64,000 nt of DNA from Schmidtea polychroa (Eukaryota): NCBI GenBank assembly GCA_044892525.1, contig CM097885.1, forward strand, positions 10,542,001-10,606,000, given 5' to 3'. Below, piece by piece: positions 35,281 to 36,900 of the stretch. Under the pieces are notes generated by a model. That model made no database searches. It had not been told where the DNA came from and saw only the letters and a program-made list of their open reading frames with translations. How positions within the stretch are numbered: the first letter of the stretch is position 1; the number at the start of each line of letters is the position of its first letter. Made by a program: the position numbers and the translations under genes.

Positions 35281-35569
35281 TATTATTATTATTATTATTA
35301 TTATTATTATTATTATTATTATTATTATTATTAATATTATTATTATTATTTTCATTATTATTATTATTATTATTATTATTATTATTATTATTATTATTAT
35401 TATTATTATTATTATTATTGTTATTATTATTATTATTATTATTATTATTATTATTATTATTATTATTATTATTATTATTATTATTATTATTATTATTATT
35501 ATTATTATTATTATTATTATTATAATTATTATTATTATTATTATTATTATTATTATTATTATTATTATT
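35281..35569. repeat. (ATT)n microsatellite
   Basis: Array with a few interruptions. Confidence 0.99.
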
Positions 35570-35621
35570 TAAAACAATAAAATGATAATTTAAGCCTTTT
35601 GCTGCAAATAATGTATTTAAT

Positions 35622-35660
35622 GAAAGAATTTTCGACTATACGATAGTCCTTGTCAATCTC
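35622..35660 (-). ncRNA. Hammerhead-like motif, U3-A8 variant (left arm)
   Basis: Reverse complement of 35946-35984. Confidence 0.6.
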
Positions 35661-35945
35661 CTGGAATTTAGCAATGTTCTTCTTCAAAATACCCTTCAAT
35701 CTTTCTTTTATTTCCTTTCTCTTATTTCTCATTGGTTGTAAATATAATGAATTGTTTTACTAAAAACTTTTAAATTTTTTTTTTTTTTTTTTAAAAAATA
35801 AAAAAATTTTAAAAGTTTTAAAAAAAAAAAAAAAAAAAGTTTTTAGTAAAACAATTCATTATATTTACAACCAATGAGAATTAAGAGAAAGGAAATAAAA
35901 GAAAGATTGAAGGGTATTTTGAAGAAGAACATTGCTAAATTCCAG

Positions 35946-35984
35946 GAGATTGACAAGGACTATCGTATAGTCGAAAATTCTTTC
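35946..35984 (+). ncRNA. Minimal hammerhead-like ribozyme motif, U3-A8 variant
   Basis: GAGA-UUGACAA-G-GACUAU-CGU-AUAGUC-GAAA-AUUC-UUUC: 6-bp stem II, GAAA, palindromic AAUU stem III, stem I GAGA/UUUC. Confidence 0.65.
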
Positions 35985-36900
35985 ATTAAATACATTATTT
36001 GCAGCAAAAGGCTTAAATTATCATTTTATTGTTTTAAATAATAAATGCTGCTACCAAGCAATCATCATTTTATATTATTATTATTATTATTATTATTATT
36101 ATTATTATTATATATTTTTGTAATAATAAAAAACTAAATTAATATTTCTTTGCATAAAAATTCAAAAAAGTTTATTAGAATTTTTCCGATCTAATTGAAA
36201 GCGGGATAATTAAATTTTTTATAATAATGAAAACACTAAGAAAAAGGTTATATACTTAAAGCTGTGGTAAAAAATTTAATTAAATTACGAGAAAATTTAT
36301 TTTTATCCAATTTAATGTCATTAGGAATTTTGTGACGACAAATAAGAGTTCAAATATTGCAATAAATTGTAATGAACTATTATTTATATATTTAATCTTT
36401 ATACAATTTTTAGCTTATTTTATATTTTAAATATAACCAAAATGTATTTATTTCATGGTGTATTAAAGGAATTTAGAGATTTCAATAATTTTTGGTGTTT
36501 TTAAGTAGTTATAATTATTCATAATTGTTTGTTATAATTAATTGTTATTTATAATAATTATAAAATAATTAGTTCTTTATTAAAACAATAACTAAAATAT
36601 TTACTCAGCGTGAAATGAATAAAATAAATTCTACAATTTAATAAAATTTATTTACTAAATTTTCACTTCATCTTTTTCGAAAACTTTTTTTTTCATTTTT
36701 TTTTAATTGTCAAATTTTATAATTTGAATAATTTCCTCACCTCTCTATTTTTATATTCAATTTCTGATTTTCCTTTATTTTTTCTTTATAATCCTATTTG
36801 GTAACTGATGTAATTTATATAATCGCCAATCTTGGCCCTTTTCACTGAAAAGACTTGTAAAGGCCATATTGGAATTGAAATTAATTTCTAAATATAAAAC

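Follow-up and report, generated by a model that had tools for sequence, protein, structure and literature searches.

Inverted arms, a one-sided tail of 30–40 nt, a bias toward microsatellites, and minimal hammerheads have been described for Penelope-like elements (PLEs) (PMC8557442, PMC3846280, PMC11167929, PMC4209133, PMC2377424, PMC3124438, and bioRxiv 10.64898/2026.07.22.740005). The origin of the inverted arms, the one-sided tail, and the microsatellite preference is described as unresolved in PMC8557442, and self-priming on antisense RNA was proposed for rotifer PLEs (PMC3846280). In an in vitro study of an anole PLE protein, both target strands were cut and extended with a preference for ATT, and the reverse transcriptase (RT) started on sense RNA at two adjacent internal sites that match the tail (PMC11167929). 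Uncleaved RNA was used in that study, and a dimer formed via an N-terminal helix was predicted. There, the RT start site showed no strand bias, pairing of start sites per insertion event was not reported, and some integration steps are left open (PMC11167929).

The fold-back architecture of PLEs is already in print, and counts of tail pairing and arm length were not found in the literature searched. By title and opening, that literature, whose scope did not include Repbase and two subscription reviews, contained no (AAT)n-targeting planarian PLE, no per-event start-site pairing, and no coupled arm lengths. Here, we analyzed a 64,000-nt stretch of Schmidtea polychroa DNA, hereafter called the window, and the family of fold-back copies found in it. 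Because this family is young and large and has many intact ORFs, its rules could be counted insertion by insertion, and the counted rules make the question of PLE integration directly testable by experiment.

Fold-back copies in the window

The copy at 35568–36071 is a head-to-head fold-back with 225-nt arms that were 98% complementary (about 243 and 271 nt by BLAST), and it sits between two (ATT)n arrays (Table 1). The initial annotation described two young copies, this one and 60157–60369, with common outer ends and an extension on a single arm, and both features were found again. Of the arm lengths given there, ~200 and 87 bp, the second was reproduced for the inverted arm of 60157–60369, and the first was too low. 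The tail, initially put at ~34 nt, is indeed one-sided, and its length depends on the starting point: with the A of the ATG numbered +1, as throughout this study, it is 30–32 nt from the ATG, or 38–40 nt if counting begins at the other end's inner edge. This inner edge is ambiguous because the sequence of the tail-less end resembles the AAT array.

Older relatives were recognized at three of the other places initially listed. The short fold-back at 59178–59336 matches the young copy at ~74% and has no tail, and its forward arm outscored all 796 same-length window controls. An old 3′ end carrying the tail lies at 18179–18274 (85% over −63 to +29), and the score of the tail remnant near 57667 was reached by none of 796 controls. 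The remaining listed sequence did not stand up to the controls: the score of 17915–18130 alone was matched by 13 of 784 same-length window controls, which is not significant, and that of 58056–58380 as a whole was reached by 9 of 774 controls. BLAST at E<0.01 found nothing in the latter, where the sole recognizable piece was a tail-like motif at 58355.

Several other features were observed in the window. A hammerhead-like motif on the minus strand at 24078–24110 adjoins the array at 23980–24077 and possibly represents a third family. The 409-aa open frame at 43164–44393 (+) appears to resemble a DEG/ENaC-type channel, and the broken frames at 38948–40390 (−) appear to resemble a hAT-type transposase. 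An open frame with four 69-nt tandem repeats lies at 46987–47427 (+).

Table 1. Positions of array, arm, and motif features of the fold-back family in the window.
Feature	Position	Strand	Remarks
Left half of target (ATT)n array, 96 units	35281–35569		Reads the same way as the right-hand array
Inverted tail-less arm, about −8/+1 to −247	35562–35803	−	Outer edge ambiguous over 35562–35570 (locus L118)
Forward tailed arm, −242 to +30: 3′ UTR end, pLTR, ORF start	35804–36074	+	Locus L118
CCAAT box, some 70 nt upstream of −100	35871–35875	+	Read from the sequence; putative promoter role
Predicted minimal type I hammerhead motif, U3-A8 core variant	35944–35984	+	First base is −100; predicted cut after 35980
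Mirror copy of the hammerhead motif	near 35656	−	Minus arm
Tail, first 30 nt of the 856-aa ORF, ATG at 36045	36045–36074	+	Locus L037 runs on into the ORF
Right half of target (ATT)n array, 14 units	36073–36116		
Short inverted tail-less arm (−8 to −94), second young copy	60157–60243	−	Locus L119
Short forward arm, −100 through tail	60243–60369	+	1-nt overlap at junction (L119)
Right part of target (AAT)n array	60369–60546		Left part: 6 units, up to about 60156
Old short fold-back, no tail	59178–59336		One hammerhead helix II pair altered on both sides
Old pLTR remnant and tailed 3′ end	18100–18274	+	Small inverted piece inside; adjoins array 18261–18843
Old tail remnant	57656–57694	+	Beside array 57366–57656

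The element and its encoded protein

The fold-backs are, with near certainty, the pseudo-LTR (pLTR) ends of a young endonuclease-bearing PLE (EN+ PLE). An ORF with RT and GIY-YIG domains, for which extension of the longest copies in the 5′ direction had been proposed, is present in locus L037. In that locus, the 856-aa ORF lies between a truncated pLTR, preceded by an AAT array, and a second pLTR, followed by another array. The element unit is 3,076 nt long, and its single ORF encodes an RT with a GIY-YIG endonuclease at the C terminus; Pfam models RVT_1 and GIY-YIG matched residues 389–579 (2e-14) and 756–790 (1e-5), respectively, both over the cut-offs. The tail corresponds to the first ~30 nt of this ORF. 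In L037 and other full-length copies, the pLTRs are arranged as partial tandems with variably truncated upstream repeats. The early reading of a young Penelope-like retroelement with inverted, 5′-truncated pLTR arms and a one-sided tail is supported.

Genome ends were counted by pattern search, since a DNA search with 86 nt gave nothing because AT-rich words were skipped. A 29-mer from the pLTR had 1,544 exact matches in the genome, compared with 0 for the reversed control, and the degenerate 29-mer had 3,437. A 226-nt query was found at 100% identity in at least 40 places (40 scored among 768 candidates), and the 856-aa frame was intact at 16 among 150 scored N-terminal matches.

At least 189 protein homologs (E≤1e-20; 8,000 scored) had the same domain layout, the best of them with 46% identity. 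A C-x4-C-x6/7-C linker before the endonuclease is conserved and common to many homologs, and the CCHH endonuclease motif and the RT motifs GxKF and DKG were found by eye according to the definitions in PMC8557442. Of the CX2-5CxxC linker of Nematis/Neptune, the C-x4-C is present and the xxC is absent, the third Cys being located 6–7 residues on; the PNL2_SM row likewise departs from this pattern (Fig. S2, PMC8557442). The Penelope/Poseidon clade, which has no cysteine linker, is at odds with the conserved C-x4-C linker, the Hydra clade (no CCHH, CxCX5C linker, DKT) with CCHH and DKG, and the Naiad/Chlamys clades (N-terminal endonuclease, no hammerhead) with the C-terminal position of the endonuclease. 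The clade that appears closest by eye is the PNL2_SM/Nematis type.

A 55-codon open frame was noticed in the pLTR (5530–5697 in L037, corresponding to 35875–36042 in the window), which shares the reading frame of the ORF, with two stops in between; a Pfam search with this 55-aa frame gave no match. In L105, L111, L141, L150, and L100, internal ORF pieces were joined in, inverted, or deleted, which suggests template switches or internal priming. An insert of ~690 bp resembling a DNA transposon (L249, 728–1417) interrupts a tailed arm at the pLTR/ORF border. In contigs from a second organism, the 33-nt tail segment was found at 90–95%, followed by loose ends, so this organism may harbor a related family that shares the tail end.

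Target preference and the AAT arrays

The sample consisted of the first 100 matches of the 29-mer along one contig (C1), which formed 82 clusters containing 17 head-to-head pairs and 0 tail-to-tail pairs. Eighty clusters were taken, L112 and L116 were dropped as duplicates of L111 and L115, respectively, and 123 arms with a 3′ end remained. A first set of 39 loci had come from a tail-containing query and was omitted from the tail statistics because the query that selected them held the tail.

Arrays of (AAT)4 or longer lay within about 25 nt of 102 of the 123 3′ ends (83%), compared with 968 of 56,680 background positions (1.7%) in 20 evenly spaced 10-kb stretches. This tabulation of the flanks, which had been proposed as a check, agrees with the strong (AAT/ATT)n preference in both orientations claimed at the outset. 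Where a copy had arrays on both sides, the two were coherent, like halves of a single divided array, in 31 of 31 fold-backs and 19 of 20 solo copies. The length of the flanking array was independent of end type and orientation (Kruskal p=0.48), and 21 of the 123 ends had no array. No AAT run is present within the element. From the occurrence in both orientations, the coherent split arrays, the array-less ends, and the constant length, the AAT arrays are therefore pre-existing targets, not products. Several family insertions were stacked in one array at L114, L148, L161, L172, and L056, each splitting the array further.

The initial annotation had suggested that the element seeds or expands the arrays. 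One conceivable route for such growth is telomerase-like repeat addition that begins at the AAT-like motif of the tail-less start site. The summed flanking arrays had medians of 180 and 203 bp, above the length-weighted background of 120 bp (47 arrays only), and tail-less ends adjoined AAT in 35 and ATT in 23 cases (p=0.15), with 22 each for tailed ends. The longer summed flanks fit a preference for long arrays, with some growth possible, and target duplication alone would add only 4–5 units per insertion. In view of the array-less ends, the coherent orientation of the split arrays, and the lack of an AAT run in the element, seeding or lengthening of arrays is very unlikely, and the equal lengths across end types and orientations do not support telomerase-like addition.

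Target duplications were searched for with up to one mismatch and reaching 8 nt into the element ends. At the six array-less fold-backs, they measured 15, 16, 15, 19, 13, and 9 bp. Duplications of 13 bp or more were thus found at 5 of 6 array-less fold-backs; among 182 mismatched pairs, a single one reached this length. Of the 7 solo array-less copies, none had a duplication beyond chance length. For annotation, these results mean that hairpins of 100–250 bp in AAT arrays are PLE ends and not MITEs or assembly errors, and that the arrays are landing sites.

Rules of fold-back structure

The 3′ ends of the arms clustered at two positions, −11 to +1 and +28 to +38, with a spacing of about 30–38 nt. 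One tailed arm was paired with one tail-less arm in 36 of 38 fold-backs, the remaining 2 having no tail and none having two, which differs from the expectation of about half mixed (p=2e-9). Arm lengths were coupled: 23 of these fold-backs had two short arms, 15 had two long arms, and none was mixed, where 18 mixed ones were expected. Among the 5′ stops of the 123 arms, 53 (about 43%) fell within −103 to −91 and only 5 within −199 to −107. The turn-around point had been called variable; arm lengths do differ, but the concentration of stops shows that it is not simply variable. The upper edge of the short-arm boundary was −100 by exact extension. The junction of an array with −100 occurred 27 times, on all four large contigs and one small contig, and 1,751 arms read through −100.

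The two arms of one fold-back shared 69 minor variants and had 62 private ones over 11,549 shared sites; this sharing of 53% compares with a mean of 7% and a maximum of 33% over 500 re-pairings of arms. Neither arm contained the other in 4 of 13 long tailed fold-backs of the position-ordered sample and in 17 of 25 long fold-backs of the first, tail-selected set (two loci were in both sets), and the tailed arm contained the other in 8 of the 13. Junctions were callable in 30 of the 38 fold-backs: 13 had insertions, several of which copy nearby sequence as judged by eye, 3 were blunt, 8 overlapped by 1 nt, and 6 overlapped by 2–3 nt. Overlaps of at least 2 nt (6 of 30) compare with about 17% by chance. 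Solo arms accounted for 47 of the 123, and 18 of these had the short-class stop.

A second, older subfamily was counted by eye and comprised 40 loci with 18 callable fold-backs, from which L250, with an unclear end, and a small inverted piece in L251, which duplicates its flank, were omitted. A tailed arm was paired with a tail-less arm in 16 of the 18, with no tail in 1 and two tails in 1. Both arms were short in 14, both were long in 2, and 2 were mixed, with short arms ending at −28 and −31. The exceptions in this subfamily (L240 and L253) were thus one old tail/tail fold-back and two long/short fold-backs, and L034 of the first set was also a long/short exception.

The pLTR and the −100 boundary

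From −100 onward, a minimal type I hammerhead with a U3-A8 core was predicted by descriptor match and fold. Its 6-bp helix II is preceded by an unpaired base, and it has a G-C closing pair as well as a 15.2–16.2 step that is palindromic. These features are listed for minimal hammerheads in PMC4209133, where U3-A8 is reported for Cercyon elements. The pLTR would thus carry a minimal hammerhead, as EN+ PLEs do. An Rfam search of the pLTR gave no hammerhead match, only chance hits on a neighboring hairpin, and the fold energy of the hammerhead was not beyond that of shuffled sequences (z −0.6).

The distance from the upstream CCAAT box to −100, about 70 nt, is the usual spacing from a transcription start, so −100 would most simply be the transcription start, that is, the RNA 5′ end. 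The sequence just upstream of −100 also resembles a 3′ splice site, and an intron of the D. virilis element ends at the 5′ side of hammerhead helix I (PMC4209133). A candidate splice donor and two candidate acceptors were seen by eye around the hammerhead (5570–5660 and 5590–5601 in L037), and no GT-AG joint was found in four contig sets, the RNA status of which was guessed. A spliced or leader-spliced template found no support, since the junctions read had no common foreign sequence upstream of −100 and no GT-AG joint was present in these contig sets. Cleaved linear RNA as the template was rejected, since only 1 of the 123 arms had its 5′ stop at the predicted ribozyme cut (−70 to −58). In the contigs of a DNA-type run, the summed depth was about 100-fold higher over the last 100 nt of the pLTR than at the ORF start, and one opposite-strand joint and one joint returning to −100 were found; this run was seen as contigs only and possibly derives from the source sample.

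Origin of the fold-backs

We consider it probable that a dimer of the RT-endonuclease cuts both strands at an existing (AAT)n or other AT-rich site, with one RNA then serving as template for both of the cDNAs that it primes. The two 3′ primers would come from a double cut staggered by about 13–16 bp. One subunit would begin where the pLTR meets the ORF and the other some 30 nt inside the ORF, leaving the tail on one side. On a linear transcript beginning near −100, both cDNAs would run off after 100–130 nt and form the short class, and two long arms would result if the RNA were circular or tandem or if both cDNAs made a template jump together. Host end-joining would connect the two cDNA 3′ ends head to head, and solo copies would arise when a single primer is extended or kept. 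This mechanism fits the two end positions, the one-tail pairing, the coupled lengths, the shared variants, the arms that do not contain each other, the junctions, and the duplications, and it is in line with the in vitro behavior of the anole PLE protein (PMC11167929). In it, we infer the cut, the single RNA molecule, the start site, and the template of the long arms (circle, tandem read-through, or joint jump).

Dimerization was examined by modeling residues 1–300 as a homodimer, which formed via residues 55–95 with a score of 0.49, the best of three controls reaching 0.01; the runs agreed in 100% of contacts, and the partner pLDDT was at least 59. In calibration on microbial proteins, 21 of 30 homodimers and none of 23 single chains reached the mark; on eukaryotic proteins, 17 of 29 pairs (7 of 16 for animals) and none of 30 single chains did so. 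Among the eukaryotic pairs that lacked an older solved relative, just 1 of 7 passed, so a pass may reflect memorization. The model supports dimerization of the protein, short of demonstrating binding. Against the proposed mechanism, the shared variants would also fit two RNAs from one master or later arm-to-arm gene conversion, and the exceptions L240, L253, and L034, the 47 solo arms, the solo array-less copies without duplication, and the lack of strand bias at the anole RT start site (PMC11167929) count against it as well.

Self-priming on antisense RNA, in which the 3′ end folds back, the hairpin is copied, and the endonuclease trims one tail, likewise predicts the shared variants and the head-to-head geometry that were observed. 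A near-palindromic 7-mer at −94 is the site of many short junctions, the arm containment data are compatible with trimming of one tail, and the tail has been ascribed to endonuclease resolution (PMC8557442). This route is weakened by the missing junction complementarity, overlaps of at least 2 nt being at about the chance level and 13 of 30 junctions having inserted bases, and by the solo arms that stop in the short class without a fold-back. The RT also begins in vitro on sense RNA at the two sites that define the tail (PMC11167929), and we regard self-priming as unlikely. Dual priming on two RNAs of one master, or a joint jump of both cDNAs to the 3′ pLTR in the style of a retroviral strong stop, has a small but real chance of being correct: it would account for the variants common to both arms, for the target duplications, and for the single tail of each event, and the pile-up at −100 resembles a strong stop. 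With two independent RNAs or independent jumps, however, about 18 of 38 fold-backs should have been long/short, and none was; a coupled jump would be compatible with this count.

Snap-back of a single cDNA, which folds on itself and is copied into the second arm, would also produce shared variants and explain the 8 of 13 long fold-backs whose tailed arm contains its partner. However, the tail-less arm extends further 5′ while the tail is on the other arm in 4 of 13 long fold-backs of the sample and in 17 of 25 of the first set, so neither can have templated the other, and the flanks are not mirrored. Snap-back is largely refuted by those loci and is highly improbable. An artefact of assembly or library construction might be suspected because the evidence comes from assembled contigs and the junction of the copy at 35568 lies within long A/T homopolymers. 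Against this, the flanks are unique and unlike on the two sides, array-less cases have target duplications, paired arms are unequal in length and have, over all pairs, 62 private differences at 11,549 shared sites, and the opposite-strand joint occurs in a contig of the public DNA run (which may be from the same source sample). A MITE or other DNA transposon would have fixed symmetric terminal inverted repeats and a constant body. The arms here range from 30 to >3,000 nt, have unequal ends, and continue into the RT ORF, in agreement with the initial rejection of a MITE. Artefact and MITE together can be practically dismissed.

More broadly, every Penelope-type inverted insertion might be one dimer event with two cDNAs on the same RNA and a subunit placed at either end of the tail, in which the tail length would reflect the spacing of the RT active sites and the 100/130-nt copies would be run-off products that map the RNA 5′ end. 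We advance this generalization tentatively, as a proposition slightly short of an even chance. If it is true, a universal dimer model would explain the inverted arm and the one-sided tail jointly and replace antisense self-priming.

Comparison with known systems

In twin priming of L1, both target strands prime cDNA on one RNA and a 5′ inversion results; the pieces come from neighboring stretches of the RNA that do not overlap, and the insertion has a poly(A) end. Unlike in L1, the arms of the family described here overlap fully and have fixed start sites with about 30 nt between them.

The Perere_Smed-like Penelope/Poseidon family at 27–33 kb in the window is also a PLE with a hammerhead in the pLTR, and by eye its endonuclease segment agrees with that of Perere_Smed (Fig. 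S2, PMC8557442), which would fit a planarian host. As initially stated, the two families are distinct: their proteins have 23% and 29% identity, and the Perere_Smed-like family has no cysteine linker and a canonical C3-G8 hammerhead core. This second PLE family also forms fold-backs (27180–28260 and 32088–33079 in the window, 4900–5153 in L037, and in L102 and L143). Since it ends beside AAT arrays as well (L037, L102, and L143), the arrays collect several PLE families.

The hammerheads of Cercyon from Schistosoma mansoni, the comparison being by hammerhead alone, share the U3-A8 in place of C3-G8, a short helix I, the unpaired base before helix II, and opposite-strand pairs 100–700 bp apart (PMC4209133), whereas helix II is 6 bp here and 7–8 bp in Cercyon. 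PNL2_SM/Nematis-type PLEs resemble this family in their CCHH endonuclease and in a short linker with cysteines ahead of the GIY motif, and PNL2_SM looks closest by eye (Fig. S2, PMC8557442); the linker is C-x4-C-x6-C in our family, not CX2-5CxxC.

The EN+ PLEs Penelope of D. virilis, Pen2a_Av of Adineta vaga, and PAc of Anolis share with this family the ORF with RT and C-terminal GIY-YIG and the partial-tandem pLTRs (PMC8557442, PMC3846280, PMC11167929). Also alike are the inverted 5′-truncated arm, the 30–40-nt tail at one end, the target duplication, the minimal hammerhead, and the AT-rich or ATT targets. In contrast to these elements, the (AAT)n bias is very strong here (83% of ends), and about 43% of arms stop at one 5′ boundary. 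The target duplications are 13–16 bp, compared with 8–10 bp in the A. vaga examples, and the tail begins at the ATG, whereas that of PAc begins 111–118 nt into the ORF.
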